Source: an uncultured Phycisphaerales bacterium (GTDB lineage Bacteria; Planctomycetota; B15-G4; CAYZWU01). From it: a stretch of 64,000 bases of DNA. The stretch lies in assembly GCA_964620445.1 (NCBI GenBank), contig CAZUHB010000004.1, forward strand, positions 45,461-109,460. The letters are read 5' to 3'. The first letter of the stretch is position 1; every line of letters starts with the position of its first letter. Of this stretch, positions 7,451 through 53,488 are shown in pieces. The notes beneath the pieces were generated by a model, which saw nothing but the letters and a program-made list of their open reading frames with translations, made no database searches and was not told the DNA's origin. Position numbers and translations under genes: made by a program.

Positions 7451-10249
7451 TCACTCCAGAGACGCGGCAGGCCGGCAACCGAGCAGAGGCGAATTGTTCA
7501 CGGGACGCTCAAAACTGCGACCGGCGGAGGTACAGCCCAGGGCGGACTGTTGCCAATTGCCTCCCCGGTTCATTCGCTTTATCGTTTGTGCCGACAGATA
7601 GACGGAGCCATCTGCCGGTTTGGTGTTATAGGTGGAAACGTAATTGTCCTGACACCATTCCGACAGGTTGCCGCAAACATCGTGGAGGCCGAACGGATTG
7701 GGAAGATAGGCGCCCACCGGTGCGTGCACCGCGTGCCCATCATCCCAAGCCTCGACACCGCTCGCGTCCGGATCGAAATGCGTCCTGAATCGCTCGTCCC
7801 TGAGATTGACCTTGCCGGCAAGGCTCGAGGCGTCGTTTCCCATCCACCAGATAGAGGAAGTTCCGGCCCGCGCCGCATATTCCCACTCCGACTCCGTCGG
7901 CAACCTGAGGCCCAGACGGCCGAGAACGTCGGCGCAGTCGTTCCAGCTGACCATTTCCACCGGATTGAGAAGGCTGAGCCGCTCGCTTTCGAAATCGGCC
8001 GCGGGTCCGAACCGGCTAGGATTTTCACCTGTAAAACGAAACCATTGAGCCTGGGTCATTTCGTACTTGGAAAGAAGAAAGGGCTGAATCGCGACCGCAA
8101 GGAGCGGTTGGGTGGTGAAGCTCGCTCCGGGATCGACGTGGGCCGAACCGAGGGGGTGCTCCTCCGACGGGGGAATGGCTCCCATCTTGAATGAACCGCC
8201 GGGAATCAGGACGAAGACGAGACCGGTCTCCTCCGTGATGGCGAGGCTGCCGTCAGGGCCGCGCTCTGGAATCTCCCCCGTCTGAAGATGGGCGAACTCC
8301 CACAGCCCCGTGCGCGGATCTTGTCCGAGGGGAAAGAACCCGGCCTTCTGTTTCACGGTCAAACCGCCATACTGCGGGCAGAGAGCTTCGTCGGCAATGG
8401 ATGCGGTCGTCTCTTCCCAGGCGGCCCGATGCTTCGCGAAATCCTTTTCGAGCCTTCTCGCAGATTCGCGTCTCTTCAAGATGTCCCGGAGCAAGCCCTG
8501 GGCGGGATCTTTCAGCGCATCGAGCCCTTGCGTCAGGTCGGCGAGGACATCGTGCTGCCACCGGCGTTCCACCTTCTCGAATTCCCAGGTGCGGTACCGG
8601 GCGATCTCTTTCTCCAGCGCGCGGATCCGGTCTCTTGTCCGTGCAAGGTGCCCTTTCAATCCGGCAGTAGGATCCGAAAGGAAACCTTCTTCCTCGAGCT
8701 CCGCGATTCTTTTGGAAAGCTTTTTTTCCGTTGTACGCAGCGCCACGAGTTCGGGCCAGTCGCGGTGGCTTTCGCGGTCCCGCTTCCTGGCGGCCTCGTC
8801 GTAGGACTGGGCGTCCGACCGAAGAGCGTCAAGGGTGCGGCGATGGACGGGGCCGCGGTCGAGGAGCTGCTCGGCCTGATCGATCCAGGTGTTCAGGTCT
8901 CCGATCCGGACGGGCAGAGCGGGCCAGAGTGTTTCGGCTTGTGCCACGAGATTGGCGAGCTGCTTCATGTCGGCGAGGCGCAGGATCTGGTCGTAGGCTT
9001 CGGTGGTCTTGTTTTTCTCCGAAAGGATTTTTGGATAGGACCAGAGCAGCACGTAGCCGATGATTCCCACGACAACGATCATGGCCGCACAGATCGCCGG
9101 GTTCTTGAGCGCCCATTTGCGGAGTTTTCTCGATAATCCCGCGGGCCTGGCCTTGATCACCTTTCCGTCCAGGAAGCGGCCGATGTCGGCCGCGAGCTCG
9201 TCCGCGTTCTGGTAGCGGTGCTGGCGGTCTTTTTCAAGAGCCTTCAGAATGATCGTTTCCAGGTCCCCTCTCAGGGATTTCTTGACGAACGATGGTTTCT
9301 CGGGGGCGACTTCGCAGATCCGCCGCGCCGCTTCGAATACCGTCGTGTTTCGAACCTTGTAGGGGAGTTTGCCGCAGAGCAGCTCGTAAAGGACGACGCC
9401 GAGCGAATAGACATCGCTGCGGATATCGAGGCTGTCCGGATCAGCCTTGCACTGCTCGGGCGACATGTACTGGACCGTGCCGATGAGCTGGCCCGCTTCG
9501 GTGTGGGCCGCGGTGAGGGCGATGTCCGCATCGGCGGCCCGCGCCACGCCGAAGTCGATGACCTTGACCTGCCCGTGAGCGTCCACCAGGATGTTGCTCG
9601 GTTTCAGATCCCGGTGGATGATGCCCGCGTTGTGCCCGTGGTGCACCGCGTCGCAGACCTGGAGAAAGAGTCCGAGCCTCTGCTTCAGGCTCAGTCCGTT
9701 TTCGAGCACATGGTCGGTGATGAGAACCGCGTCGGGAATGTACTCCATCACGAAGTAGGGGATACCTGTTTCATCTGCTCCCGATCGGGAGATCGTATCG
9801 TGGAAGCCGGCATCTATGACCCGGGCAATGTTCGGATGTCTGAGCTTGGCCAGGATATAGGCCTCGTACTCGAAACGGCGCTGGATCGATCCGAAGAGGA
9901 GTCCTTTCTTCAGCATCTTGACCGCCACCGTGCGCCGCGGATCTTCTTGCTCGGCCTCGTAGACCGTGCCCATTCCGCCGGAAGCGATGGTGCGCTTCAG
10001 GATGTATTTTCCGATCCGCGATCCGCGATCGAGCCGCTCCGGCTCTTCGGGCCGCAGCGCGGAGACGACGGGGGCGTCCTCGAGGAAACAGTTTTTTTCC
10101 ACCCCGAAGGCGAGCATCCTCTCCACCTTGCGTCGCAGCCGGGTGTCGCCGCCGCAGGCACCGTCGATAAAGGCGGCGCGCTCACCGGGCGGGCGTTCCA
10201 TGGCCGCATTGAAAATCTCCTTGAGGCGTTGAAAGAAATCGCTGGCCAT
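7451..10249 (-). CDS. Membrane Ser/Thr protein kinase with C-terminal FGE-sulfatase domain (tandem paralog)
   Basis: SGGMGTVY, HRDLKPSN, DFGVA, GTVQYMSPEQ; TM segment; LPTESEWEYAARAG, NPFGLHDVCGNLSEWC. Its stop is separated by 1 nt from the downstream kinase start. Confidence 0.92.
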   Translation of the reverse strand: MASDFFQRLKEIFNAAMERPPGERAAFIDGACGGDTRLRRKVERMLAFGVEKNCFLEDAPVVSALRPEEPERLDRGSRIGKYILKRTIASGGMGTVYEAEQEDPRRTVAVKMLKKGLLFGSIQRRFEYEAYILAKLRHPNIARVIDAGFHDTISRSGADETGIPYFVMEYIPDAVLITDHVLENGLSLKQRLGLFLQVCDAVHHGHNAGIIHRDLKPSNILVDAHGQVKVIDFGVARAADADIALTAAHTEAGQLIGTVQYMSPEQCKADPDSLDIRSDVYSLGVVLYELLCGKLPYKVRNTTVFEAARRICEVAPEKPSFVKKSLRGDLETIILKALEKDRQHRYQNADELAADIGRFLDGKVIKARPAGLSRKLRKWALKNPAICAAMIVVVGIIGYVLLWSYPKILSEKNKTTEAYDQILRLADMKQLANLVAQAETLWPALPVRIGDLNTWIDQAEQLLDRGPVHRRTLDALRSDAQSYDEAARKRDRESHRDWPELVALRTTEKKLSKRIAELEEEGFLSDPTAGLKGHLARTRDRIRALEKEIARYRTWEFEKVERRWQHDVLADLTQGLDALKDPAQGLLRDILKRRESARRLEKDFAKHRAAWEETTASIADEALCPQYGGLTVKQKAGFFPLGQDPRTGLWEFAHLQTGEIPERGPDGSLAITEETGLVFVLIPGGSFKMGAIPPSEEHPLGSAHVDPGASFTTQPLLAVAIQPFLLSKYEMTQAQWFRFTGENPSRFGPAADFESERLSLLNPVEMVSWNDCADVLGRLGLRLPTESEWEYAARAGTSSIWWMGNDASSLAGKVNLRDERFRTHFDPDASGVEAWDDGHAVHAPVGAYLPNPFGLHDVCGNLSEWCQDNYVSTYNTKPADGSVYLSAQTIKRMNRGGNWQQSALGCTSAGRSFERPVNNSPLLGCRPAASLE

Positions 10250-22299: not shown

Positions 22300-25221
22300 A
22301 TGCTCCCGATCTTGATCGCCATCCTGCTGATGATCGTACCCGCGGCGCAGTCGGACGAGACCGACCGCCTCGCGGACGCCCAGGTTCTTTTCGAGAATGG
22401 AGAGACCGGCGCGGCCCTGCGTCTTCTCGAGGAACAGGTCGCCCTGAATCCCAACGACGAGGAGGCGTGGACCCTTCTCGGTCTGATGAATCGCCAGGCG
22501 GCGGATGAGCTGATCGACTCTGGTGGGGACCCGACCGGCTATCTGGAGAGTTGCAGGGCGGCTCTCGAACAGTCCCTCGATCAGCAGCCTCTCGATCTGG
22601 ATGTTCTGGCCGTCTACATCGACACCTGCGATCTCCTCGGCGCCTTCGGGCCGATCGTCGCGCGCGCGGAGAACGCCTCGGGCCGCCTCTACCTGCGCGA
22701 CCGCACGGCGCCCCCCTGGCTGATCGAAGCGGCCGCGAGCGCGCGGGCGCGGCTGCTCATGGAGCAGAATCCGGGCGCCACACCGGAGTTCGTCGTCGAT
22801 TTTGCCCACGCCCTGGACGCGCTGAATCACGCGGCCGACAGCGCCGGGCCGAGCGCCCATCTGGTGGGACTGCGCGCCGATCTCCTTCACTGGGCGGGCC
22901 TCTATCCCCTCGCCGTCGATTTGCTCGGTGCCTCTCTCCACGCCATGCCAGGCCAGGTAGACCTTCACCGCCGTTTCATCGACCTGCACTTTTATCCTCA
23001 GATCGTCTACCGCCTTCCGGCCTTCTACGCGGAATTGAGCGCGGTGTACCCGGCCGATCCTACGGTGACGTGGTTCCGCGGCTACGCCGAACTGCTCGCC
23101 GGGGACCTGGCCCGGAAGGAACTGCGCCTCCAGGATGCCCGGGACCGCTACGAGTCGTGCTGCCGCTCGATGGACGAAGCGATTCTGCTCAGCCCCGGTT
23201 GGGCGGCGAGCGCCCGCGTCTACCGCTTCCGAGCGAAACTGGGGAAGGGGTGGTGCGCCCTGCGCGAGAGCGATCTCGAACGGGCCGGCGCTCTCTTTCT
23301 GGAGGCTCTCGAGTTCGCTCCCGACCTGCTCGATGAGAAGGACGGATTGGGCCGCTCCCTGCTCGATGCGGTAGGAAGGTTCGAGGCGGAAGTGGTGGCC
23401 GCCCAGCAGCTCGACCTCGGGCTGGAACTGGCGCGCAGGATCGCGGAAGTTGTGGGAACGGACGCTCAGCTCTACAACAACCTCGGACTTCTGCTGCGCG
23501 ACCATGGAAGCCAGGTTCAGCAAGACGCCCTCGCCGGGGAGAGCGGGATTCCGGCTGACGGCGATGATCCTGCCCGGGAGATTTTCGAGGAATCATGGAG
23601 CGCCTATGTCGAGGCGGCCGCACTCGATCCGAACAACGTGCGCATCGTGAACGATGCGGCGCTCATCCAGGTCTACCATCTGCGTGACGAACTCGACAGG
23701 GCGCGCCGTATGCTTCATGACGCGATCCGGATGGGAGAGGACCAGATCGCCGCTCTCGGCGATCAGCCGGACGAAGCCGCACGCTACAGCCTGGCCCTGG
23801 CAGTCGGCGACGCCTGGCAAAACCTCGGCTATCTCGCCCAGTACGTGGACGAGGATTTCGAGAAGGCTGCCGAATGCTACAGGGCGTCGATCGGCACGAA
23901 CAGCGGACCGCGACCGGCGGTGCGCGCCGCGCTCGACGAGGTGACGGGCAAGGCCGAACCGGGTCCCGATCCCTACAGCCGCGAAACCATCGCCGCCCGG
24001 ATCGCGCGATCAGGCCGCCAATCGGAAGATGAGGCGAGCGGTGACGCGGCCGACAGGAGCGATCGTTCGAGGCGCCGTTCCTACTTTCGCAGGCTCTCGG
24101 CCATGAGAACCAGCCTGACCTGGGAACCGTCCTTCGATGCGGCCCGGGAGCGGGCGCGGCGCGAGAATCGTCCCCTCTTGGTCTACTACCGGCCCGACGG
24201 GCTCGCCGACATCGTGGTCTGGGCCGATCGCATCATCGCGATGCCGGCTTTCGGCGAGCTGGCTGACGGCGTGGTCTGCGCGATCGCCGACAAGCAGCGT
24301 TACACCTACGTCGATCGCCGCGGCGACGGCCGGCCTGTCTGGTCGATCCGCTACGGCAACCTGACCTGTTCGGACCACATCCGGACGGCGGAAGAGTTTC
24401 TCGCGCTCTGGCCCGAGATGCGCCGTGAAGGAGAGCCGGTCGTTCCCGAGGAAGGCCTCTATTTCTTCACCGCCGGCGGAGAGCGGTTCGTGCCGGAGGG
24501 GGAACTCGATTACGACTTCAGAACGCTCTTCGAGTCTCTCCGCGAAAAATCGGGCGAACCGGAACCGGACAGGATTCTCGCCCTGCTCGAGGGTCAACTC
24601 GCCGGCGTCAACAAACCGAACAGGGCCGAGGCCGCCTCACTTCTTCTCGATACCCCGGGCCGGCCGGCGCGACAGCGGCTGGAAGAGCTCTTGTTCGATC
24701 GAGCCACACCGGACGCGGGCCGCGCCGCCCTGGTGAACGCCCTTTCGGGCCGTGGCGACGAGTATTCGACATCACTCTACGAGGCTCTGATCCGCCAGTA
24801 TGTCGACGCCGACCTGGCCGTGCTCGCCCTCGAGGCATGGTCGAGCGGCCGCAGCCACGAGCCGGTCCTCTACGCGCTTCACTGGTCGCCCCACGAGGAG
24901 GTACGCGCCGCGGCCGCCACCGCCCTGGCGCGCACGGGCACGACGGCCGAGGTACGCCGCATCCTCCTCGCCCGACTCATCGCCTGCCCCGAGGAGGAAC
25001 GGATCGCCGCGGCGCGCGCCCTCTTCCACGTGCGCGACCTGGTTCTGGGCGCGCTCGTTGCGCGTCTCGATCGCGAACCCGCCGGCAGAGTGCGCGCCGC
25101 TGTGTGCAACGTGCTCGCCGGCGTGGACGATCGTGATGCCCGCACCGCGCTGAAAGCGATCTGCGAGACCGATTCCGATCCGCGCGCGGCAGCCGCGGCC
25201 GCGCGTGCGCTCGGCGAGTGA
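22300..25221 (+). CDS. Secreted TPR + thioredoxin-like + HEAT-repeat protein
   Basis: Signal peptide; TPR helices; 'LTWEPSFDAARERARRENRPLLVYY' thioredoxin-like start; C-terminal HEAT repeats (EEVRAAAATALA, GRVRAAVCNVLA). Confidence 0.7.
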   Translation: MLPILIAILLMIVPAAQSDETDRLADAQVLFENGETGAALRLLEEQVALNPNDEEAWTLLGLMNRQAADELIDSGGDPTGYLESCRAALEQSLDQQPLDLDVLAVYIDTCDLLGAFGPIVARAENASGRLYLRDRTAPPWLIEAAASARARLLMEQNPGATPEFVVDFAHALDALNHAADSAGPSAHLVGLRADLLHWAGLYPLAVDLLGASLHAMPGQVDLHRRFIDLHFYPQIVYRLPAFYAELSAVYPADPTVTWFRGYAELLAGDLARKELRLQDARDRYESCCRSMDEAILLSPGWAASARVYRFRAKLGKGWCALRESDLERAGALFLEALEFAPDLLDEKDGLGRSLLDAVGRFEAEVVAAQQLDLGLELARRIAEVVGTDAQLYNNLGLLLRDHGSQVQQDALAGESGIPADGDDPAREIFEESWSAYVEAAALDPNNVRIVNDAALIQVYHLRDELDRARRMLHDAIRMGEDQIAALGDQPDEAARYSLALAVGDAWQNLGYLAQYVDEDFEKAAECYRASIGTNSGPRPAVRAALDEVTGKAEPGPDPYSRETIAARIARSGRQSEDEASGDAADRSDRSRRRSYFRRLSAMRTSLTWEPSFDAARERARRENRPLLVYYRPDGLADIVVWADRIIAMPAFGELADGVVCAIADKQRYTYVDRRGDGRPVWSIRYGNLTCSDHIRTAEEFLALWPEMRREGEPVVPEEGLYFFTAGGERFVPEGELDYDFRTLFESLREKSGEPEPDRILALLEGQLAGVNKPNRAEAASLLLDTPGRPARQRLEELLFDRATPDAGRAALVNALSGRGDEYSTSLYEALIRQYVDADLAVLALEAWSSGRSHEPVLYALHWSPHEEVRAAAATALARTGTTAEVRRILLARLIACPEEERIAAARALFHVRDLVLGALVARLDREPAGRVRAAVCNVLAGVDDRDARTALKAICETDSDPRAAAAAARALGE

Positions 25222-29062: not shown

Positions 29063-30382
29063 ATGAAAGCGATCGCGACAGCTGTTGTGGGCGTACTGAT
29101 CTTCATCTGCACCGGGCCGGTCTCGGCCGACACGCCCGATATCGAGGAAGCGGTCTACATATACGACGGCTCCGATCCGATGGAAGCGTACAAGACCCTC
29201 GTGCCTGTTGCCGTCGACTGGAACAACGACGGATTGAAGGACCTCGTGGTCGGCCAGTACACGGACGGTTACATCTGGCTCTATCTGAATCAGGGGACCG
29301 ATATCAATCCCGTTTTCGACGGGGGCACGCTCATCGAATCGAACGGCGCACCCATCACGACGTCCTACTACTGATGTCTCGGATCGAGTCCGCGAGTAGT
29401 GGACTGGAACGGCGACGACAAGAAGGATCTCATCACGGGCGAGCGCGACGGTTATATCCGGATCTACCTGAACACCGGAAGCGACGAGGCCCCTGTCTTC
29501 AGCGGCTACACATTTCTACTGGTTGACGGCCTCATCTTCGACTGCGGCCTCTCGTCGATACCTGACGTGGTCGACTGGAACAACGACGGCCTCTTCGACC
29601 TGCTGTGCGGCGAAGACGACGGAAAGGTCTATCTTCTTCTCAACAGCGGCAAGTCGAAGGATCCTCTCTTCGAATCCGCCGCGTTCATCCGGAAGGGAGG
29701 AGGAGACCTGGATGTGGGTTCCCTCGCCAGTCCCACGGCGGTCGACTGGAACAGGGACGGCAAAAAGGACCTGATCGTCGGAGAGCTGAGCGGCTACCTG
29801 AATTATCTCGAAAACGTGGGAACCGACGAGGAACCCCTGTTCGTCAGCTCATCGCTCCTTCGCATCGACGGGGTCACCATAGACGTGAGCTACGACGCGC
29901 ACCCCGATGCCGTCGACTGGGACAACGACGGCGTGATCGATCTCGTCTGCGGATGCCGCGAGATCATTGACGGCAAGGTGCTCTATTTTCACTCCCGCGG
30001 CCCCTTGTGGGTGAACGGGAACACTCTCTCCAAGAGCAGCGGCGGCGATATCGACTTCGCGTTGAACGGCGGGGGGGGCAATGCCGGCCGCTACTACTTT
30101 CTCATGGGTACGAACGAGGGAACCGAGCCGGGCTACACCCTGCCCGGGGGCGCCATCCTGCCGCTGAACTGGAGCTGGGTGTCCACCTATATTTTCAACA
30201 ACTACAACACCTACCCGCTGACCCGTTTCCGCGGTTCGTTCGACATTCTAGGCAAGGCCACGGCGTCGCTGCACGTTTCGTCGCCGCCGCTCGCGGTGGG
30301 CACGATCCTTCACTTCGCCTTCACCACCGAGATGCCCTACGACTACCAGTCCAATCCCGTTTCGATCGAGATGTTGCCCTGA
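29063..30382 (+). CDS. Secreted FG-GAP/VCBS repeat protein with in-frame UGA (predicted Sec104-Cys105), 439 aa
   Basis: Track ORFs 29063-29374 and 29399-30382 are in the same frame. TGA at 29372-29374 lies inside repeat 2 (ITTSYY*CLGSSPRVVDWNGD). Five 'P..VDW(N/D).DG..DL..G' repeats span the TGA, and only the first part carries a signal peptide. Confidence 0.8.
29375..29405 (+). promoter_or_regulatory. Bacterial SECIS-like hairpin
   Basis: Stem AGTCCGC (29387-29393) / GTGGACT (29399-29405), 7 bp with one G-U; loop GAGTA starts with G after a 19-nt spacer from the UGA. Confidence 0.7.
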
Positions 30383-30539
30383 CCCGCCCCCTTTGTGCTT
30401 GCAGCGCGAACGCCTCGAGAGTAAAAAGAGAACAGGGGATCGGAAGATCTCTGGGGATTTAAAACAGGCGAATTCAGAGTCGCGAATGCCAGGTCGGCGT
30501 TCGGTCACAGGGAAATCTGTTCTCGAGCGGGAGGAAACC

Positions 30540-32231
30540 ATGGCGATTCAACGTGTGATCTTTTCGAGGTCTCGGTGTGTTTTGGCAGCGGCCGTTCTGA
30601 TGCTGTGTGCGCAAGGCTTTGGCGCGCCGGCAGATCTTCCCGTTCCGAAGGTATCGGAGTTTTCATCGGAGAAGATCCTGACCGCTCTCAACGGGACGAG
30701 CAGCGACTACTTCGGATATTCCGTCGCCATGACGGAGGAACTCCTGGCCGTCGGGGCCCCGGTATGCGATAGCATCAACACCCAGAGCGGCGGGGTCTAC
30801 ATATTTCGTCTCGACCCCGCGTCCAAGGACTGGATCGAGGAGGTCAAGGTCAATGCGTCGGACGGCATGAGCTTCGATTTCTTTGGCGGTGCTGTCGCGC
30901 TCTCGGGCGAACTGCTGCTCGTGGGCGCTCCCGGAGACGATGAGCTGTCGAGGGGCAGTAGCTACCAGGACCTCACGGGAGCGGTCTACGTCTATCGGTA
31001 CGATTCCGGATTGAAAAGCTGGGTGGAGGAGGCGAGGCTCGTGCCCAAGGCGAGGGTGGCTCAGGGCAGATTCGGTTTCTCGGTCGCCCTCGAAAACGAC
31101 CTGGCATTGATCGGCGCTCCGGGCGAAAGCTCCGATGGACTGGCAAGCGCCGGCGCGGCTTATATCTTCCGCCACGACCCTGCCACCAAGACATGGAGTG
31201 AAGAAGGACGGCTGCAAGCCGCTGCGCCGGGGGAGGAGGCCGAGTTGGGTCACTCCGTTGCGGTCTCCCAGGGGGACGTCATCGCCGGCGCGCCGGGCGA
31301 CAGTGAAAAGGCTCTCTCCGCGGGATCGGCCCACCTGTTCGGCAGATCTCTTTCCGGAACCTGGTCGGAACAGCTCAAGCTGACCGCTTCCGATGCGGCT
31401 GAGGGGGATGAGTTCGGTTCCTCCATCGCCATCTTCAACAAGGTTGCGGTCGTGGGCGCCTGGAATGACGACGACCGCGGTTTCGATTCGGGGTCGGCCT
31501 ACGTTTTCCGCCAGGCCGGTTTCAGCGGCTGGGCAGAGGAAGCCAAGTTGACCGCCGACGACGGGGGAGCCGAGGACGAGTTCGGTTGTTCCGTGGCGGT
31601 CGCGAAGAACGTCGTCCTCGTCGGCGCGCGGAACGACGATGACCGCGGCGATTATTCAGGTTCCGTCTACCAGTTCGCCTACGACCCAAAGGCGTCCAAG
31701 TGGACGAGGGGAATGAGAATACTCGCCCGGGACGGAAGCCAGGACGCACGTTTCGGCCACGCCGTCTCGACGACGGAGAAGATAGGCCTGGCGGGAGCCT
31801 GGGGTGACAGCAACGGTCGAGGCGCCGCATTCATGTACGACTACGAGCTGGCCACGGCTCCCCATATCGACCTGAAGATCAACGGCCTTCGCCAGAAGGT
31901 GGTCGTCAAGCGGGGAGAACCGGTGATCGTCGATTTCGAGATCGACCCGCGGCGATCCCTCGTGTCTCCGACCGAGGTCTGGGTCTGGTTCGACAATCCC
32001 ACACCGGAACGGTTCGCGTACGCCGGAGGTGAATGGCACTGGGACGACTGGAAAGAGAGCCCATACAATTCGGGACGAGGGCTCTATTTCTGCGCGGAGA
32101 GGTTGAATCTCTCCTCACGGCTGCTCGGCGACTACCAGGTGTGGGTCGGTATCGAACCGCTCGCGGACAAGTCTTTCACCGCGCCGTTCTTTTTCGCCGC
32201 CACCAGAGTCGACTACCAGGTCATACCCTAG
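30540..32231 (+). CDS. Secreted FG-GAP repeat beta-propeller protein with shared C-terminal domain
   Basis: GAGG RBS; about seven 'FG.SVA....L.VGAP..D....GAAY.F' repeats; C-terminal 'PHIDLKING' module. Confidence 0.87.
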   Translation: MAIQRVIFSRSRCVLAAAVLMLCAQGFGAPADLPVPKVSEFSSEKILTALNGTSSDYFGYSVAMTEELLAVGAPVCDSINTQSGGVYIFRLDPASKDWIEEVKVNASDGMSFDFFGGAVALSGELLLVGAPGDDELSRGSSYQDLTGAVYVYRYDSGLKSWVEEARLVPKARVAQGRFGFSVALENDLALIGAPGESSDGLASAGAAYIFRHDPATKTWSEEGRLQAAAPGEEAELGHSVAVSQGDVIAGAPGDSEKALSAGSAHLFGRSLSGTWSEQLKLTASDAAEGDEFGSSIAIFNKVAVVGAWNDDDRGFDSGSAYVFRQAGFSGWAEEAKLTADDGGAEDEFGCSVAVAKNVVLVGARNDDDRGDYSGSVYQFAYDPKASKWTRGMRILARDGSQDARFGHAVSTTEKIGLAGAWGDSNGRGAAFMYDYELATAPHIDLKINGLRQKVVVKRGEPVIVDFEIDPRRSLVSPTEVWVWFDNPTPERFAYAGGEWHWDDWKESPYNSGRGLYFCAERLNLSSRLLGDYQVWVGIEPLADKSFTAPFFFAATRVDYQVIP

Positions 32232-32361: not shown

Positions 32362-35300
32362 ATGGAAGTCGAGAGGTGGAAGCGGATCGAAGAGCTGTTC
32401 AATCTGGCTGACGGTCGCTCTCCCGAAGAACAGCTGGACATCCTGACACGGGCCTGCGGAGACGATACCGCGATGCTCGACGAGGTCGTCGAGCTGCTCC
32501 GCTCCAGCGAAGCGGCCGGGAGCCGGTTCGAAGACGTTGTCCGCAAGGCCGGCGTGGAGGCCCTCGCCGAAACGCCCGTCCAGGAGGAAGCCCGACCGGA
32601 CGGCGCGGGACGGAGGGTCGGTGCATACCGTCTGGGCAAACAGATCGGTTCGGGCGGAATGGGAGCGGTTTTCGAGGCCGAACGAGCCGATGACGAGTTC
32701 AGGAAGCGTGTCGCCGTCAAGCTGATCAAGGGTGGAATGGTTTCCGGGGCGAACCTGGAGCGGTTCCTGCGCGAGCGGCAGGTTCTGGCTGATATCGATC
32801 ATCCCAATGTCGCCCGCCTGATCGACGGAGGGACCGACGAAGAGGGCCAGCCCTATCTCGTCATGGAGCAGATCGAGGGCCGGCCCTTCGATCGCTTCTG
32901 CGACGAGGAGCGGCTTCCCGTTTCCGAGCGGCTCCTTCTTTTCCGGCAGGTTTGCGCCGCCGTCTGCGAGGCCCATAAATCCCTGATCGTTCATCGCGAC
33001 ATCAAGCCGGCCAACATCCTCGTGACTCCCGACGGCACGCCGAAACTCCTCGACTTCGGGATCGCCAAGATCCTCGAGCCCGGCGGGGACCAGACGGCCA
33101 CGCAGGAGCAGCTTCTCACTCCCGAGTTCGCCAGTCCCGAGCAGCTTCAGCGAAAGCCGATCACCACGTCTACCGATATCTACTCGCTCGGGGTTCTGCT
33201 CTACCATGCGCTCACAGGGCGCAAGCCTTTCGAGAGCGGTACGAAACCGATACACGAGGTGGTGCGCTCGATCTGCGAGGAAGATCCGCCGCCGCCCAGC
33301 TCGGCGATCCTCCAGCCGGCCGACCGCGAAGGAGCGCCGGGGCCCGTCGAAATCGCCCGGAACCGCGGCTGCAGCGTCGACAAGCTGCGGCGCCGGCTCG
33401 CGGGCGACCTGGACAACATCGCGCTCACTGCCTTGCACAAGACGCCGGAACGGCGGTACGCGTCGGTGGAACAGCTCTCCGCCGACGTCAAGCGCCATCT
33501 CGACGGCCTTCCCGTCATGGCGCACCGGGACACCTTTCGGTACCGGGCGGCCAAGTTCATCAGGCGGCACCGTACGGCGGTCATGGCGGCGGCCCTGATT
33601 CTCCTCGCACTCGTCGCGGGATTGGGTTTCGCCGGATATGGCCTGTTCAAGGCGGAGAGCGCGTTATCGAGAGAGACCCAGGCCCTGTCGCGGGAGAAGA
33701 AGGCCAGGATCAACGCCAGCGCCGAAGCCGAGAGAGCGCGCATCGAGGCCGCCGCCCAGCGGCGTGTGGTCGACTTTCTCATCGAAATCTTCCGGTCCCC
33801 CGAGCCGTCGAGGACCCGCGGGAAAACGGTGACGGCCAGGGACATTCTGAAGAAGGGGGCGCTTTCGATCAAGACGTCCCTGGAAGAGGACGCCGGCGTC
33901 CGTGTCCGCCTGATGGATGTGATCGGCGATGCGTTCGTCTCCCTCGGTCTCTATTCCGACGCGGAACCGCTTTTTGAGCAGGAGCTGGAGCTCTGCCTGG
34001 AGCAGTACGGGAGCGATCATCGAAGAACGGCCGAAGCCTATCTCAATCTTTCCGACCTTCGCAAGCAACAGTTGCAGCTGGACGAGGCTTTCTCCCTGGG
34101 TGAACGCGGTCTCGAGATCGCCCGCCTGGTGAGCAAGGACGAGTTCCTCTTCTTCAGCTGCTTGCACAATCTCGCCGACGTGCAGAAGGTAAAAGGGAAC
34201 TTCGACGAAGCGGAGCGGCTTCTCGAAGAGGCTATTGCGGGATACACACGGCTCCTGGGTGAAGATCACCGCCACACCCTCGATCTGCTTTGCAGCAAGG
34301 CCGATTTTTTCAAGGCCCTCGGTCTCTACTCGAAAGCCGAGAAAATTGTCGAAAGGGTCCTGAAGACCCACCGCTCTTCGCTCGGCTCGGATCATCCACT
34401 CGCCTTGACGGCCATGAACCGCCTGGCCAGTCTCTACATGTCCCAGGATCGCAATACGGAAGCGGAAGAGCTCCTGCTCGAGGCGGTGGACAGGTGCAGG
34501 ACCGTGCTGGGAGTCGATCATCCCGATACCCTGTCCACACTGTCATCCCTGGCGATTCTCTACGTCCGCCTCGGCCGGTTCTCCGAAGCCGAGACCCTGT
34601 TCGAAACGCTGCATGGCAACTACAGCCACCAGTATGATTCCTTTCTCAACGACATGGGGGGATTCCACCACTACCAGGGGAATCTGTCGGAAGCGGAGCG
34701 CTACTACAGGCAGTCCCTCGAAATGCGCCGGGGGGAGCTGGACGAGGATCATCCCAAGATCATCGTCTCTACCCAGAACCTCGCGAGCGTCCTGAACGAT
34801 CTCGGCGACCATGAGGAATCGTTCCGGCTTTTCGAGCAGGCTCTCGAAATGTCCCGCAAGAAGTTCGACAAGAACCATCCCACGACCTTGAAGATCCTCT
34901 TCAACATGTCCGACTGGTACAGGTCGAACAAGCGCCTGGACGAGGCCGCGGCCGTGCTCGAGGAGACCCTCGACGGGTGCATGGCGTCGCTGGGCGAGAA
35001 GCACTACCTGACGAACAACTGCCGGAAGAGGCTGGGAATCGTTCGGCAGGATCAGGGACTCTTCGAGGAGGCGGAGTCGATTCTGAAGGAAGCTGTCGAC
35101 GGTGCTTCCAAGGGGGAGGATCACGGCTTGACGCTCACGTGCTTCTACAGGCTGGGCGCCTGCTACCATGCCCAACGACGGTTTATGGATGGAGCGCGAA
35201 CCTTCGAGCAGGGGTTCGAACTGGGTCTCCGCCTTGTCGGGAGCGGCGATCATGATGTCATCAGCCTGCTGTTCAACGCCGTTTTGTTCTACCAGCTGGC

Positions 35301-36003
35301 CGAAGACCACGAGAATGTGCGCCGGCTGTCCGACCGTTTCTGGGAGATTCTGAAGGGAACGGCGCCGTCCGATCCTGAATTCGCCTGGCTCTACTGCATC
35401 TACAATTCGTTGAACCGGAGTCTCCTGAGTGATCTCGACCCGCAAAGCGAGATCAAGGTGATCCGTGCGGTCCGTGACGCGGAATCCGACCGATCGCCTG
35501 AATGCGCCCTTGCCTTCCGCGACGACGACGGGTCTGCCGAGGATTCGGCCTGCATCGATTACGGCGAAGACTACCTCTTCAAGACGATCGATGTCGACGC
35601 CGCCCCGCAGTCTGCCGCGTACTACCGCTTGTGGATTTACGGACAGCCGTACAGCAGCGAAGGGAAAAGTTTCGTTCCCCGCGCGGATTACGGCATCATC
35701 GTCAACGGCGACCAGGAGCGGGTGCTGGAAATCGACGTGAGCGAAGTGTTCGGACCGGACAGGGATGCCTTCAAATGGGTCGCGGTCCCGATCGCCGCGG
35801 AGAGTGTGACGCAAGGCGACAACAGGATAGTGATCTTCTATACCGGCCCGCCCAACTCACGGGCGCCCAACAAACTCCGCGTCGGGATCGATCAGGATTC
35901 GGATCGCGACGGCAGCGCATGGTTCGCAAACCGTTCCTTTGGCGTCAATCCCGATATTTGCAGCGGCGAGCTCATGATCTTCCTCGAAGCCCGCCCGCGG
36001 TGA
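32362..36003 (+). CDS. Membrane Ser/Thr protein kinase with TPR repeats and a C-terminal beta-sandwich-like domain
   Basis: GSGGMGAVF, VAVK, HRDIKPAN, DFGIAK, TPEFASPEQ; TM helix; kinesin-light-chain-like TPRs (LGSDHPLALTAMNRLA). Confidence 0.92.
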   Translation: MEVERWKRIEELFNLADGRSPEEQLDILTRACGDDTAMLDEVVELLRSSEAAGSRFEDVVRKAGVEALAETPVQEEARPDGAGRRVGAYRLGKQIGSGGMGAVFEAERADDEFRKRVAVKLIKGGMVSGANLERFLRERQVLADIDHPNVARLIDGGTDEEGQPYLVMEQIEGRPFDRFCDEERLPVSERLLLFRQVCAAVCEAHKSLIVHRDIKPANILVTPDGTPKLLDFGIAKILEPGGDQTATQEQLLTPEFASPEQLQRKPITTSTDIYSLGVLLYHALTGRKPFESGTKPIHEVVRSICEEDPPPPSSAILQPADREGAPGPVEIARNRGCSVDKLRRRLAGDLDNIALTALHKTPERRYASVEQLSADVKRHLDGLPVMAHRDTFRYRAAKFIRRHRTAVMAAALILLALVAGLGFAGYGLFKAESALSRETQALSREKKARINASAEAERARIEAAAQRRVVDFLIEIFRSPEPSRTRGKTVTARDILKKGALSIKTSLEEDAGVRVRLMDVIGDAFVSLGLYSDAEPLFEQELELCLEQYGSDHRRTAEAYLNLSDLRKQQLQLDEAFSLGERGLEIARLVSKDEFLFFSCLHNLADVQKVKGNFDEAERLLEEAIAGYTRLLGEDHRHTLDLLCSKADFFKALGLYSKAEKIVERVLKTHRSSLGSDHPLALTAMNRLASLYMSQDRNTEAEELLLEAVDRCRTVLGVDHPDTLSTLSSLAILYVRLGRFSEAETLFETLHGNYSHQYDSFLNDMGGFHHYQGNLSEAERYYRQSLEMRRGELDEDHPKIIVSTQNLASVLNDLGDHEESFRLFEQALEMSRKKFDKNHPTTLKILFNMSDWYRSNKRLDEAAAVLEETLDGCMASLGEKHYLTNNCRKRLGIVRQDQGLFEEAESILKEAVDGASKGEDHGLTLTCFYRLGACYHAQRRFMDGARTFEQGFELGLRLVGSGDHDVISLLFNAVLFYQLAEDHENVRRLSDRFWEILKGTAPSDPEFAWLYCIYNSLNRSLLSDLDPQSEIKVIRAVRDAESDRSPECALAFRDDDGSAEDSACIDYGEDYLFKTIDVDAAPQSAAYYRLWIYGQPYSSEGKSFVPRADYGIIVNGDQERVLEIDVSEVFGPDRDAFKWVAVPIAAESVTQGDNRIVIFYTGPPNSRAPNKLRVGIDQDSDRDGSAWFANRSFGVNPDICSGELMIFLEARPR

Positions 36004-48700: not shown

Positions 48701-48851
48701 TAATAAATCACTCCTTCATTCAGCGAAGAAATCCTTTAATCTATAGGGTGCGCGGTGCCGCATTGCGTTGCGGCGGCACCCGGTCCCAGGGGGAGTACCC
48801 TGCCCGGGCGAATGCCCGATCGGCAACGCGAAGCAGAACCAGAGGGTGATC

Positions 48852-50423
48852 GTGAACAGAGACGAGAGAATTTCCCGCCGGCATTTCGTTCGCACGTCGG
48901 CTGCCCTCGGCGCGGGTATGGCCCTCGGCGCCGGCACGGCGCCCGGGGTGCCGCTCGCCAGGCCGCTGAACGCCCGGCATCCTGCCCAGGCCCCCGGCGC
49001 GCGGCCCCACATCGTTCTCATCATGACCGACCAGCACCGCGCCGACTGCGTGGGGTGCAGCGGCAACGAGGTCATCCAAACACCCCATCTCGACGCGATC
49101 GCGGCCGAAGGGGTCCGGTTCGCGAACGCGTTCAGCTCCACGCCGAGCTGCACGCCGGCGCGGGCCGCGCTCCTCACGGGGCTTTCGCCCTGGAATCACG
49201 GCATGCTCGGTTACGGACGGGTGGCCCGAAAATACCGGCACGAACTTCCCGGCTTGCTGCGCGGCGCCGGCTACTACACTTTCGGCATCGGCAAGATGCA
49301 CTGGTATCCGCAGAGATCGCTCCACGGCTTTCACGGGACCCTGATCGACGAGAGCGGCCGGGTCGAGACAGAGGGATTCGTGAGCGACTATCGCAAGTGG
49401 TTCCAGGAGCAGGCGCCCGGTCTCGATCCCGACGCAACCGGAATCGGCTGGAACGAACACCGCGCCGGCACCTATCTGCTCGCCGAGGATCTCCATCCCA
49501 CCTACTGGACCGGGCAGACGGCGGCCGATCTGATCGACAACCACGACCGGGACAAACCGCTCTTTCTCAAGGTTTCCTTTGCGAGACCGCACAGCCCCTA
49601 CGATCCGCCGCGGCGCTTTCGCGACCTCTACGGAACCGAAGAGATCCCGGCGCCCAGCGTGGGCGGCTGGGCAAAGAAGTATGCCTCCTTCCCCAGGACC
49701 AAGAGCGCGGCCTTCGGCGATTACGGCGCGGACCACGCGCGCGCGTCGCGTCGGGCCTACTATGGAAACGTCACCTTCATCGACGAGCAGATCGGCCGCA
49801 TCGTGGGGGCGTTGAAGAGGCGGGGCATGTACGATGATGCCCTGATCCTGTTCACCGCCGACCATGGCGACATGCTGGGCGACCATCACCACTGGCGCAA
49901 GACCTACGCCTACCAGGGTTCGGCCAATATCCCGATGGCGATGAAATGGCCGGGCGGCATCGACGCGGTTCCGCCGCCGGGCAGTACGCTGCACCAACCG
50001 GCCGAACTCCGCGACTGCCTGCCCACCTTTCTCGACGCTGCCGGCGCGCGCACGCCGCGCGGGCTCGACGGCCTCAGCCTTCTCGACCTGGTGCGCCGGC
50101 GGGAGGCTTCCTGGCGGGAATGCATCGACATGGAGCATGCCACGTGCTATCGCGAAGAGAATTACTGGTGCGCGCTGACCGACGGTAAAAGAAAATACAT
50201 TTATTTCTTTCCAAAGGGAGAGGAGCGGCTTTTTGATCTAGTCAATGATCCGCACGAGAAACACGATCTCGCCGCGGACAGACGCCGCGCCGAAGATGTG
50301 GAGCAGTGGCGGGACAAAATGATCCGGCACCTCTCCGAGAGGGGGGACCGGTTCGTCAAGAAAGGCAAGCTCCAGACCAGAAAGAAATCGATTCTCTACT
50401 CTCCTCATTATCCCGGAGACTGA
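48852..50423 (+). CDS. Tat-exported arylsulfatase (Cys-type)
   Basis: SRRHF twin-arginine signal; IMTDQHR; CTPAR sulfatase signature; GKMHW; ADHGDMLG. Confidence 0.92.
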   Translation: MNRDERISRRHFVRTSAALGAGMALGAGTAPGVPLARPLNARHPAQAPGARPHIVLIMTDQHRADCVGCSGNEVIQTPHLDAIAAEGVRFANAFSSTPSCTPARAALLTGLSPWNHGMLGYGRVARKYRHELPGLLRGAGYYTFGIGKMHWYPQRSLHGFHGTLIDESGRVETEGFVSDYRKWFQEQAPGLDPDATGIGWNEHRAGTYLLAEDLHPTYWTGQTAADLIDNHDRDKPLFLKVSFARPHSPYDPPRRFRDLYGTEEIPAPSVGGWAKKYASFPRTKSAAFGDYGADHARASRRAYYGNVTFIDEQIGRIVGALKRRGMYDDALILFTADHGDMLGDHHHWRKTYAYQGSANIPMAMKWPGGIDAVPPPGSTLHQPAELRDCLPTFLDAAGARTPRGLDGLSLLDLVRRREASWRECIDMEHATCYREENYWCALTDGKRKYIYFFPKGEERLFDLVNDPHEKHDLAADRRRAEDVEQWRDKMIRHLSERGDRFVKKGKLQTRKKSILYSPHYPGD

Positions 50424-51266: not shown

Positions 51267-52079
51267 GTGGTACGGATCGGTTACTATCAGTTTGCGCCCT
51301 CCTTCGGCGAGAAGGATCAAAACCTGGCAAAGGTGGTTCACGCGCTGTCCGGTGTCGAGGCCGACATCGTGGTCCTGCCGGAGCTTCCCTTCACGGGGTA
51401 TCTTTTCCGAGACCGAGCCGAACTCGAAAGCATGGTCGAGGATCCGTTGCGGTCGCCCATCGTTGAAAGCCTGGCCGGACTCTGCAAGGAGAGGGACTTC
51501 TATCTCGTCACCGGCTTTGCCGAACGCGCCGGGGAGAAGTGTTTCAACAGTGCCCTTCTCATCGGGCCCGAGGGGCATCTTCACACGTACCGGAAGCTCC
51601 ACCTCTTCTGCGAGGAAAAAAAGATCTTCGACGCGGGGGATACTCCTCTCGCCGTGCACACCGTTCGCGGCACCAGGATCGGCATGATGATCTGCTTCGA
51701 CTGGGCCCTGCCGGAGGTGGCCCGCACCCTGGCGCTCGAGGGCGCGGACGTGATCTGCCACCCCTCCGATCTGGTCCTCGACTACTGCCAGCAGACCATG
51801 GTGTCCCGCTGTATCGAGAATTCCCTTTTCGCCGTGACCGCGAATCGTCACGGCACGGAGAAGCGACCCCACGGTACGGTCACTTTTACCGGGCGGAGCC
51901 AGGTGGTCGAGCCCCGGGGCGAACTCCTGCACCGGAGCGCCGAGAACTCGGACGAACTCTTTCTGGCCGACGTCGATCCCCGGCGCGCGCGGGACAAGCA
52001 GATTACTCCCTGGAACGATCTGCTCGCCGACCGGAGGCCTGAATTCTACGAGGCCCTCGGCCGAAAGGGGCCGTCATGA
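51267..52079 (+). CDS. Carbon-nitrogen hydrolase (nitrilase superfamily)
   Basis: Glu-Lys-Cys triad context: VLPEL, YRKLHLF, MICFDW. Confidence 0.92.
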   Translation: MVRIGYYQFAPSFGEKDQNLAKVVHALSGVEADIVVLPELPFTGYLFRDRAELESMVEDPLRSPIVESLAGLCKERDFYLVTGFAERAGEKCFNSALLIGPEGHLHTYRKLHLFCEEKKIFDAGDTPLAVHTVRGTRIGMMICFDWALPEVARTLALEGADVICHPSDLVLDYCQQTMVSRCIENSLFAVTANRHGTEKRPHGTVTFTGRSQVVEPRGELLHRSAENSDELFLADVDPRRARDKQITPWNDLLADRRPEFYEALGRKGPS

Positions 52080-53488
52080 AACAACACACGAGAAGGGAAT
52101 TCATCGCGATCGCGGGGTTGGGCGCCGCAACCCTCGGGTTGACAGGGTGTGCGACGGGCGCCCTCGGCCGCGGGGAGCGTGCGCAAAAACCGAACATCAT
52201 TCTTTGCATGAGCGATGACCAGGGATGGGGCGACACCGGCTACAACGGCCACCCCGTTCTGCAGACGCCGCATCTCGATGCCATGAGCCGCGAGGGGATC
52301 CGATTCGGACGGTTCTATGCCGGCGCGCCCGTCTGCTCGCCCACGCGGGGGAGCTGCCTCACCGGACGGCATCCTTACCGCTACGGCATCAAGGGCGCCA
52401 ACAGCGGCCACATGCCCGAGCGGGAGGTCACCCTCGCCGAGGTTCTCAAGGCCGAGGGATACACGACGGGCCATTTCGGCAAGTGGCACCTCGGCACCCT
52501 GACCACGTCGATCAAGGATTCCAGGCGCGGCAGGCCGGGCGATCGGACCCACTACGCGCCGCCCTGGGAGCACGGATTCGATGTCTGCTTCTCGACCGAG
52601 GCCAAGGTGCCCACGTGGAATCCCATGATCGAGCCGGGCACGGTCGACGAACCGTACGGCACCCACTACTGGACCGGTCCAGAGGAACGGGCAACGGAGA
52701 ACCTCGAGGGCGATGACTCGCGAGTGATCATGGACCGCGTCGTTCCCTTCATACGCGGCGCGGCGCGCGAGGGGAGACCGTTCTTCGCGGTGATCTGGTT
52801 CCACGCGCCCCATCTGCCATGCGTGGCCGGTCCGCGGCATCTCGACATGTACGGCCAGAACGCGTACTTCGCCTGCATCACCGCCATGGACGAGCAGGTG
52901 GGGCGGCTCAGAAGAGAACTGGCCGATCTCGGCGCGGCCGGAAACACGATGTTCTGGTTCTGCGCCGACAACGGTCCGGAGGGGAAGAAGTCCACCGGCC
53001 AAAACGGCTCGGCCCGATTGCTCCGGGGGCGCAAGCGCAGCCTTCGCGAAGGGGGGGTGCGCGTGCCCGGTCTGCTCGTCTGGCCGGACAGGATCGGCAG
53101 GCCGCGCTCTTTGCACCTCCCCTGCTCGACGAGCGATTACTTTCCCACCGTGCTCGATGCGCTCGGACTCGATGGAGCGGACCGGACCGAGCCGCTCGAC
53201 GGGATCAGCCTCCTTCCCTTCGTGGACGGAAGCGAGGTCGAGCGCCCCTGTCCGATCGCTTTCGAATCGGGCAGGCAGCTCGCCCTCATCGGCAATCGCT
53301 ACAAGATCTATTCCGGCGACGGAGGCAAGACGTTCGAGCTCCACGATCTCGTCGAAGACCCGGCGGAGAGCATCGATCTGTCCGACAAGAAGCCGGAGGT
53401 GGTGAGCGCCATGCGCCGCTGCCTCGACGAATGGCGGGAGTCGTGCCGGGCGAGCCACGGTCAGCGGAGGCGCTCGGAGGAGCGATGA
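52076..53488 (+). CDS. Tat-exported sulfatase (Cys-type)
   Basis: TRREF twin-arginine signal; MSDDQG; CSPTR; GKWHLG; ADNG. Confidence 0.92.
   Translation: MKQHTRREFIAIAGLGAATLGLTGCATGALGRGERAQKPNIILCMSDDQGWGDTGYNGHPVLQTPHLDAMSREGIRFGRFYAGAPVCSPTRGSCLTGRHPYRYGIKGANSGHMPEREVTLAEVLKAEGYTTGHFGKWHLGTLTTSIKDSRRGRPGDRTHYAPPWEHGFDVCFSTEAKVPTWNPMIEPGTVDEPYGTHYWTGPEERATENLEGDDSRVIMDRVVPFIRGAAREGRPFFAVIWFHAPHLPCVAGPRHLDMYGQNAYFACITAMDEQVGRLRRELADLGAAGNTMFWFCADNGPEGKKSTGQNGSARLLRGRKRSLREGGVRVPGLLVWPDRIGRPRSLHLPCSTSDYFPTVLDALGLDGADRTEPLDGISLLPFVDGSEVERPCPIAFESGRQLALIGNRYKIYSGDGGKTFELHDLVEDPAESIDLSDKKPEVVSAMRRCLDEWRESCRASHGQRRRSEER

Follow-up and report, generated by a model that had tools for sequence, protein, structure and literature searches.

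A candidate bacterial SECIS hairpin in an FG-GAP repeat gene and the putative Sec-Cys protein family to which it belongs

Does the in-frame UGA in an FG-GAP gene of an uncultured Phycisphaerales bacterium end translation, or is it decoded as selenocysteine (Sec) under the direction of the hairpin that follows it? The gene lies in a stretch of 64,000 nucleotides (64 kb), here called the window, by which the whole stretch at its full length is meant. In the established bacterial pathway, SelB with GTP and Sec-tRNA(Sec) recognises a hairpin and inserts Sec at the UGA. We consider it highly probable, at roughly 0.9, that the hairpin at 29387-29405 is such a bacterial SECIS (bSECIS) embedded in coding sequence and that the UGA at 29372 is read as Sec. 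The structure of the hairpin, its conservation, its covariation, its specificity for TGA-bearing repeats and the linkage of the family to Sec machinery genes are all observed, although there is no experimental evidence for Sec incorporation in any member of the family.

The encoded protein has a signal-like N-terminus followed by five FG-GAP/VCBS repeats and, at the C-terminus, a domain of ~140 aa (Table 1). The protein matches Pfam FG-GAP_3 (PF13517) at 66.2 bits, against a gathering cutoff of 26.9, with three matched stretches. The predicted signal peptide is confined to the fragment upstream of the TGA, and the orthologues have equivalent N-termini. For structural analysis, AlphaFold was applied to the Cys orthologue P0061 in place of the window protein, and the model displays a propeller with pLDDT >90 except for a five-residue loop bearing the Cys/Sec site. 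The Foldseek neighbours of the modelled protein consist only of generic FG-GAP propellers with low TM-scores and give no functional lead. The other gene content of the window includes sulfatases and FGE-domain Ser/Thr kinases and, together with the nearest orthologues, points to an organism of the Planctomycetota/Phycisphaerae.

Table 1 Features of the FG-GAP gene and its hairpin (positions refer to the window)
Feature	Position	Strand	Description
Full gene of the inferred selenoprotein	29063..30382	+	439 codons and stop; single frame with one internal TGA
Predicted signal peptide MKAIATAVVGVLIFICTGPVSA	29063..29128	+	hydrophobic N-terminus, read by eye without a signal-peptide predictor
In-frame UGA, inferred selenocysteine codon	29372..29374	+	residue/codon 104; TGA conserved in homologues
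Cys codon TGT directly after the inferred Sec	29375..29377	+	vicinal Sec-Cys dyad, motif [G/Y]-U-C-x-G
Covariance-model match	29372..29419	+	54.4 bits, E = 2.7e-12; sole strong match in 64 kb, both strands
Optional lower stem	29375..29420	+	TGTC 29375-29378 with GACA 29417-29420; paired in the MFE fold, not conserved
Upper stem of the putative SECIS, 5' arm AGUCCGC	29387..29393	+	Ser AGT, Pro CCG and first base of Arg CGA
Apical loop GAGUA	29394..29398	+	G first; loop starts 19 nt (29375-29393) after the UGA
Upper stem of the putative SECIS, 3' arm GUGGACU	29399..29405	+	Val GTG, Asp GAC and first base of Trp

Of the 29 ORFs in the window, 21 end in TGA, more than in any other stop codon, and genome-wide reassignment of TGA (code 4 or 25) was therefore ruled out. 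When the window was scanned for in-frame TGA codons with coding signal on both sides, none qualified besides the one at 29372; a second candidate, at 23595 on the minus strand, was an antisense artefact.

The same codon recurs in relatives of the gene. A scan of 185,579 species, each represented by one genome, used a pattern that fixed only the G at +3 and a downstream D-W-[ND]-x-D-x-x-K-D, with any of TGA, TGC and TGT accepted as the Sec codon and no constraint on the next codon. Every one of the 49 genuine FG-GAP matches carried TGA, never TGC or TGT, and the codon right after it encoded Cys (TGY) in 48 of them. A similar pattern scan of metagenome contigs found TGA in 100/100 distinct segments. 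Cys forms are hence very rare (0/149 in the pattern scans). The peptide is kept on both sides of the site, as ..[ST]-Y-G before it and U-C-x-G-[AS]-x-P-[QRH]-[VI]-[VA]-D-W-N-x-D-G-x-K-D-L from it onwards, and the family motif of the TGA repeats can be written G-U-C-x-G-x-x-P-[QRH]-x-[VA]-D-W. One comparative criterion for a selenoprotein gene asks that the in-frame TGA recur in orthologues and that the coding sequence be conserved before and after it; 149 TGA-bearing repeats satisfy it. A further criterion, homologues with Cys aligned to Sec, is met by P0061, which reads ..SYS-C-NLGSSP... In addition, the window protein and the majority consensus of its orthologues have a Cys at the equivalent position (F-D-C-G) of the next repeat.

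Protein searches reveal how the family is represented in databases. The read-through query retrieved ~100 relatives with 45-57% identity, nearly all of them C-terminal fragments of 320-340 residues that begin exactly at (M/V)DW(N) or MGSSPRVVDW, just past the TGA site. The N-terminal query retrieved ~80 fragments, 100-108 aa long, whose last residues are exactly ..SYG. These fragments are named "VCBS repeat-containing protein" or "hypothetical protein" in GenBank. The DNA of two orthologues reads TGA TGY followed by AGTCCAC-GAGTN-GTGGACT. A locus search with full-protein alignment, based on generic FG-GAP peptide patterns, returned mostly unrelated FG-GAP proteins and one true orthologue (L001).

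The hairpin itself had been described in an earlier note, made from the letters alone, as a 7-bp stem AGTCCGC/GTGGACT with a G-first loop and a 19-nt spacer, and the sequence bears this out, one of the seven pairs being G-U. RNAfold, suggested there as a check, gives a stable fold for 29372-29430 of -21.5 kcal/mol, with z = -2.66 against dinucleotide shuffles, 3 of 200 of which were as good, and an MFE of -14.6 kcal/mol for the 27-nt hairpin alone. As had also been pointed out, V-D-W is written GTG GAC TGG only in this repeat, and GTC GAC TGG in the four others (regions 29212, 29573, 29744 and 29915). The suspicion that the stem and loop are spelled in rare codons was largely justified by the codon usage of 20 Pfam-supported window genes: AGT (4.7% of Ser codons) and GTA (2.1% of Val codons) are each the rarest of their kind, and CGA (8.8% of Arg codons) is uncommon but not the rarest. 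These choices are accounted for if the hairpin is built from the S-P-R-V-V-D-W codons, as this locks the codons concerned and leads to the rare AGT and GTA and to GTG in place of GTC. When the same peptide was resampled synonymously with the codon usage of the window, a 7-bp stem in this register arose in 0.8% of the resamplings, and an MFE of the 27 nt at or below -14.6 kcal/mol in 0.4%. Judged from the window alone, the hairpin is moderately unlikely to be due to chance. It is the comparative evidence, and not the window-only statistics, that makes the case decisive.

Across the family, the TGA elements align without gaps, and the 19-nt spacing between UGA and loop is invariant in all members. 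The four core pairs are kept in all 51 genome-derived and all 100 metagenome-derived elements, so that absence of the hairpin from TGA-bearing homologues, an outcome named beforehand as refuting it, was not observed. The pair at element positions 33 and 41 joins base 3 of the Pro codon to base 2 of the Val/Ala codon; it is AU in 39 elements, GC in 6, GU in 6 and never unpaired (Fisher 5e-5), and the change from Val to Ala (GTG to GCG) is found only together with the change from CCA to CCG. Pair 29-45, which joins base 3 of the Asp codon to base 2 of the codon five upstream, covaries likewise, with A-T in 18/19 and G-C in 15/15 (Fisher 8.6e-9), and one metagenomic element displays a double compensatory change from C-G to U-A. 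The Fisher tests on these pairs were made without phylogeny correction.

The conservation extends to bases that the peptide leaves free. The Val/Ala codon is GTG or GCG in 51/51 genome and 99/100 metagenome elements, the lone exception being a compensated ATG, and the third base of the codon at the Ser position is T in 46 of 51. The Pro codon of TGA elements is CCA or CCG only. The first base after it is always C, and as the stem needs this C, the residue at the Arg position is restricted to Q, R or H, whose codons start with C; in non-Sec repeats the residue after Pro is mostly C, V, T, F or Y. A control set of 95 non-Sec repeats from the same loci allowed a comparison that is independent of phylogeny correction. 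Here, CCA makes up 76% of the Pro codons in Sec repeats vs 10% in the controls, CCC and CCT together 0% vs 65%, GTG 100% vs 45% of the Val codons, and T at the preceding third base 90% vs 22%, with hairpin energies of -10.1 vs -5.2 kcal/mol. The compensatory changes, the invariant four-fold sites and this codon skew support the inference of the earlier note that synonymous sites are under selection for RNA structure.

The hairpin is also specific to the TGA-bearing repeats. Stems of 5 bp or more in register are present in 95% of 148 TGA repeats, in ~1% of 747 other FG-GAP repeats and in 0/26 repeats with Cys at the Sec position; equal presence in Cys repeats would have counted against the element. 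The family mean MFE of the 27-nt hairpin lies between -10.1 and -10.8 kcal/mol. A G occupies position 1 or 2 of the loop in 46/51 genome and ~77/100 metagenome elements and is missing from both positions in 5/51 and ~23/100, respectively, and the commonest loop in the family, AGGUU, fits N1-G-G-N-N2 with N1 and N2 pairing. A covariance model was built from 45 metagenomic elements of other organisms, all with at least 9 differences in 48 nt from the window; after the match listed in Table 1, the next matches, at no more than 15.7 bits, fall on the gene's four remaining repeats. The lower stem that had been suggested beneath the hairpin fared less well: TGTC and GACA are complementary and pair in the MFE fold of the window, but in the alignment of 51 homologues the paired cells amount to just 63%, with two of the four pairs mostly broken, and RNAalifold does not predict this stem in the homologue alignment.

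A caveat to this specificity is found in two orthologues without Sec. The Sumerlaeota orthologue L132, in which Leu-Ser replaces U-C, retains the hairpin fully, and the Cys orthologue L130 retains it in part. The hairpin is thus not strictly tied to the UGA and can persist for a time. On our reading of these sequences, both may be recent losses of Sec in which a relic SECIS remains.

Some members of the family adjoin the genes for Sec decoding. ARAGORN located a tRNA-SeC (selC) gene beside the FG-GAP gene in 13 of the fetched family loci, accounting for 13 of the 17 tRNAs detected in 1.44 Mb of family loci. In 11 of the 13, selC shares the strand of the first FG-GAP selenoprotein gene and precedes it by 25-770 nt, and in eight of the 13 it adjoins selD. 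The ORF before selC is SelD (TIGR00476, 347-368 bits vs a cutoff of 125) and itself carries an in-frame TGA at the canonical UxxK position. In the Caldithrix locus L105, selA-selB-selD-selC lie beside the gene, with 576 bits for selA and 291 bits for selB. The linkage to selC and selD is found only in a subfamily with a T9SS type A sorting tail (TIGR04183), present in Calditrichota, LCP-89 and unclassified bacteria, and being confined to one subfamily, it may reflect a single ancestral arrangement. The source of one family locus (L116), LCP-89 bacterium B3_LCP, has been listed independently as Sec-utilising, with four known and no new selenoproteins according to the authors of deep-Sep, a method that may miss selenoproteins without Cys homologues (PMC12013277). 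In the 64-kb window, no tRNA or sel genes were found. Sec decoding in the source organism is consequently assumed from its relatives and from some Planctomycetes, in which complete Sec machinery is known (PMC4807772).

The absence of sel genes from the window leaves room for readthrough that does not depend on a SECIS, either by near-cognate decoding as Trp, Cys or Arg or through a pausing or readthrough-stimulating hairpin unrelated to SelB. Stop-codon readthrough can be stimulated by downstream hairpins in general, and the retention of the hairpin in the non-Sec homologue L132 is compatible with such a role. Against it stand the family genes that directly adjoin selC, a Sec-containing selD, selA and selB, and a hairpin geometry that the SelD SECIS of these genomes shares. 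Furthermore, TGA is used exclusively, with no TAG or TAA at the Sec site in ~150 members, and an invariant Cys next to the Sec site is a usual feature of Sec motifs with a redox or metal role. We regard SECIS-independent readthrough as very unlikely, even though it is the best surviving of the alternatives.

Slightly less plausible still is that the locus comprises two genes, one for a 103-aa secreted peptide and another for a 327-aa protein that starts at GTG 29399, with the hairpin as a by-product of P-R-V-V-D-W or as a translational-coupling element. Gene callers cut the gene at the TGA into ORFs of exactly these lengths, they split the orthologues at the same site and annotate so everywhere, and the GTG is a legal start codon. 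However, it is present because the stem requires GTG, and non-Sec repeats that share the P-x-x-V-D-W peptide lack the hairpin. Between the TGA and the GTG lie eight codons that are always in frame and vary synonymously while their peptide (C-x-G-[AS]-x-P-[QRH]-[VI]) is conserved. A split would moreover cut the beta-propeller between blades 1 and 2 and leave the C-terminal piece without the signal peptide needed by the T9SS-sorted relatives. Finally, one internal stop, taken from this window by itself, might be no more than a nonsense mutation or a sequencing error, and the locus a pseudogene with a recent nonsense TGA and a chance hairpin. Conservation effectively refutes this reading: the same TGA occurs in ~150 homologues from at least eight phyla with frames intact on both sides, and the identical gene is present in several independent assemblies. 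For this peptide, such a hairpin would arise by chance in only ~0.4-0.8% of cases, and the linkage to selC, selD, selA and selB in some lineages agrees with the earlier rejection of a dead nonsense mutation.

If the hairpin is a bSECIS, a ribosome arriving at UGA 29372 would encounter, ~13 nt downstream, a structure that offers its G-containing loop to SelB-GTP-Sec-tRNA(Sec). SelB would then deliver selenocysteine, termination would be avoided, and translation would proceed in the same frame to yield a 439-residue secreted FG-GAP beta-propeller protein. In the predicted fold, blades 1 and 2 would be separated by an exposed loop that holds the vicinal Sec-Cys pair. Adjacent Sec and Cys residues flanked by Gly are known to form selenenylsulfide rings or metal-binding sites. 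It could therefore be speculated that the dyad serves as a redox-active selenenylsulfide or binds metals or metalloids at the cell surface. Binding of SelB, actual incorporation of Sec and the chemistry of the dyad are all inferred.

In kind, the hairpin is an ordinary bacterial SECIS, as far as it can be classified with SelB binding and Sec insertion inferred. The bSECIS model demands a loop of 3-9 nt, an upper stem of 4-16 bp, a spacing of 16-37 nt and an MFE of at most -7.5 kcal/mol, together with a G at loop position 1, 2 or both, after which G or U is usual (PMC13188914 Fig. 2). All four constraints are met by the window hairpin (5-nt loop, 7-bp stem, G first, 19 nt, -21.5/-14.6 kcal/mol), and the earlier placement of its G-containing loop within the bSECIS spacing (PMC13188914) holds. 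As its G is followed by A, the loop departs from the usual G[G/U]. Like the bSECIS elements described by the model of Zhang and Gladyshev, with E. coli fdhF/fdnG as prototype, it is a stem-loop within coding sequence directly 3' of an in-frame UGA, and its action is inferred to depend on SelB. Unlike the E. coli elements, it has an unrelated sequence and no evident bulged U, and its stem is unusually short and almost fully dictated by the peptide S/Y-P-Q/R/H-x-V-D-W. Rfam gave no match at the gathering threshold for the whole window and none at E <= 10 for 29300-29500.

A resemblance is also found with the SelD SECIS of FCB-group genomes (L087, L097, L105, L107 and L134), which likewise has a stem of 5-7 bp starting ~13-16 nt after the UGA and a small G-first loop, with a G at nt 24 counted from the U of UGA. 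In these genomes, the SelD and FG-GAP genes are neighbours with only selC between them. The two elements differ in sequence, as the SelD SECIS has the stem GCCUGGC/GCUGGGC and the loop GGA, compared with GAU, GGU or GAGUA in the FG-GAP elements.

On the protein side, the adjoining, Gly-flanked Sec and Cys recall other vicinal Cys/Sec selenoproteins, such as thioredoxin reductase (GCUG) and the bacterial CU or GxUC families, which include a CopZ-like 2Fe-2S protein, HgcA, SaoL and MbdU (PMC13188914 Table 1). Unlike in those families, the order is U-C and not C-U, there is no sequence homology, and the dyad is placed in an exposed FG-GAP propeller loop, not in a thioredoxin-like or ferredoxin-like context or a C-terminal redox tail. 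The repeats, the D-x-[ND]-x-D-G Ca-binding-like loops and the predicted fold are shared with FG-GAP/VCBS propellers (PF13517), including integrin alpha, ITFG2, CRTAC1 and fungal PVL lectins; the solved FG-GAP relatives, however, are without Sec, and only this bacterial family has the G-U-C-x-G loop. NCBIfam selenoprotein models had no relevant match to the window protein or to three relatives, and FG-GAP, VCBS and PF13517 are all missing from the 2026 table of 119 prokaryotic selenoprotein families (PMC13188914). Full-text searches of the literature for selenoprotein with FG-GAP, or for selenocysteine with VCBS, yielded nothing relevant.

On balance, we lean towards the view that these proteins constitute an uncatalogued and widespread family of secreted or cell-surface FG-GAP selenoproteins with a Sec-Cys motif (G-U-C-x-G), almost obligately Sec (Cys forms < ~1%), with several paralogues per genome in Phycisphaerae, Verrucomicrobiota, Lentisphaerota, Calditrichota, KSB1, LCP-89 and Sumerlaeota and with one subfamily wired to selD-selC. 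The family may be a principal reason why these lineages keep their Sec machinery. It has probably been overlooked because current pipelines depend on Cys homologues: it breaks the usual rule that such homologues are abundant, on which predictors such as deep-Sep explicitly rely. If the view is correct, hundreds of short "hypothetical" or truncated "VCBS repeat-containing" entries are halves of one selenoprotein, and the selenoproteomes of the PVC and FCB groups are underestimated, as three to five paralogues would be involved in some MAGs. Sec would further be placed in an extracytoplasmic propeller and not in a thioredoxin-like fold, and the locus would provide a very clean natural case of an RNA signal that sets the choice of codons and amino acids inside a protein repeat. 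The tight linkage of selD, selC and the gene offers a handle for finding the function of the protein.

The carriers identified comprise Phycisphaerales, Pirellulales, Verrucomicrobiota, Victivallales, Kiritimatiellia, Calditrichota, KSB1, LCP-89, Sumerlaeota and one Desulfobacteraceae MAG. The copy number reaches three to five in several MAGs, and at some loci three or four paralogues, with one inferred Sec each, stand in tandem. The closest orthologues of the window gene are carried by Phycisphaerales MAGs.

In related loci from other genomes, the order selD, tRNA-Sec gene (selC) and at least one FG-GAP selenoprotein gene is conserved on the same strand (L087, L097, L107, L116, L134, L138 and L202; Table). 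The selD genes of these loci have an in-frame TGA of their own (CAG-U-ASK), and the distance from the end of selC to the start of the FG-GAP selenoprotein gene ranges from 25 to 770 nt. In Caldithrix sp. (L105), a selA-selB-selD-selC cluster abuts an FG-GAP selenoprotein gene in convergent orientation. The selenoprotein genes also form tandem arrays (L086 and L114), in which every gene copy has one Sec and its own hairpin. Two of the L114 copies read U-C-T-T-A-A-P-Q and thus lack the Gly at +3 from Sec fixed in our search pattern, so the family is larger than the pattern could catch.

Among orthologues without Sec, the Sumerlaeota locus L132 keeps the complete 7-bp hairpin (GGTCCGC-GAGTC-GTGGACT) despite encoding Leu-Ser at the U-C site, while the hairpin of L130 is partly remodelled. 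Both are possibly relic SECIS elements remaining after Sec loss.

The C-terminal sorting signals differ between subfamilies, as seen in the database proteins P0137, P0154 and P0161 and the C-termini of L116, L086 and L101. The Calditrichota/LCP-89 type carries a T9SS type A tail, another subfamily a PEP-CTERM-like tail (PEPxSxxLF..GG..RR.KK), and the Phycisphaerae type, including the window protein, ends in a distinct ..SNPVxIExxP domain. All of these C-terminal types point to an extracytoplasmic location.

Within the window, a propeller gene of a different type, FG-GAP_2, lies directly downstream of the selenoprotein gene. Neither this gene nor the second FG-GAP_2 gene contains an in-frame TGA or the hairpin. 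Apart from the TGA at 29372, the window has a single in-frame TGA that is flanked in both directions by open, GC3-rich frames. It is located at 23595 (minus strand), antisense to the gene at 22300-25221 (+), and appears to be an antisense-frame artefact.

Near the selenoprotein gene, the window encodes a Ser/Thr protein kinase (32362-36003, +) that includes an extended TPR region. In L081 (1-775), the neighbours of the 57%-identical orthologue are an ECF sigma factor and a gene of the kinase-TPR type; this may represent a conserved neighbourhood. The window is also rich in sulfatases (48768-50423, 52076-53488) and includes two fusion genes with an N-terminal Ser/Thr kinase domain and a C-terminal FGE-sulfatase (formylglycine-generating-enzyme-like) domain.

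Table. Features in the window and in related loci.
Feature	Location	Strand	Remark
selD-selC-FG-GAP selenoprotein gene	L087 5347-6800
selD-selC-FG-GAP selenoprotein gene	L097 4078-6800
selD-selC-FG-GAP selenoprotein gene	L107 3700-5866
selD-selC-FG-GAP selenoprotein gene	L116 5496-7986		LCP-89 bacterium B3_LCP
selD-selC-FG-GAP selenoprotein gene	L134
selD-selC-FG-GAP selenoprotein gene	L138
selD-selC-FG-GAP selenoprotein gene	L202
Tandem FG-GAP selenoprotein genes	L086 1245-7620	-	4 paralogues
Tandem FG-GAP selenoprotein genes	L114 2522-7530	-	3 paralogues
Non-Sec orthologue	L132 1501-2547		JAFGFN010000087.1; CTG TCG in place of TGA TGC
Non-Sec orthologue	L130 86-1390		Cys (TGT)
Secreted FG-GAP_2 (PF14312) propeller	Window 30393-32231	+	Seven repeats
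Secreted FG-GAP_2 (PF14312) propeller	Window 1431-4070	-	Seven repeats
Ser/Thr kinase-FGE-sulfatase fusion	Window 4843-7449	-	Adjacent paralogue of next
Ser/Thr kinase-FGE-sulfatase fusion	Window 7451-10249	-	Adjacent paralogue of preceding
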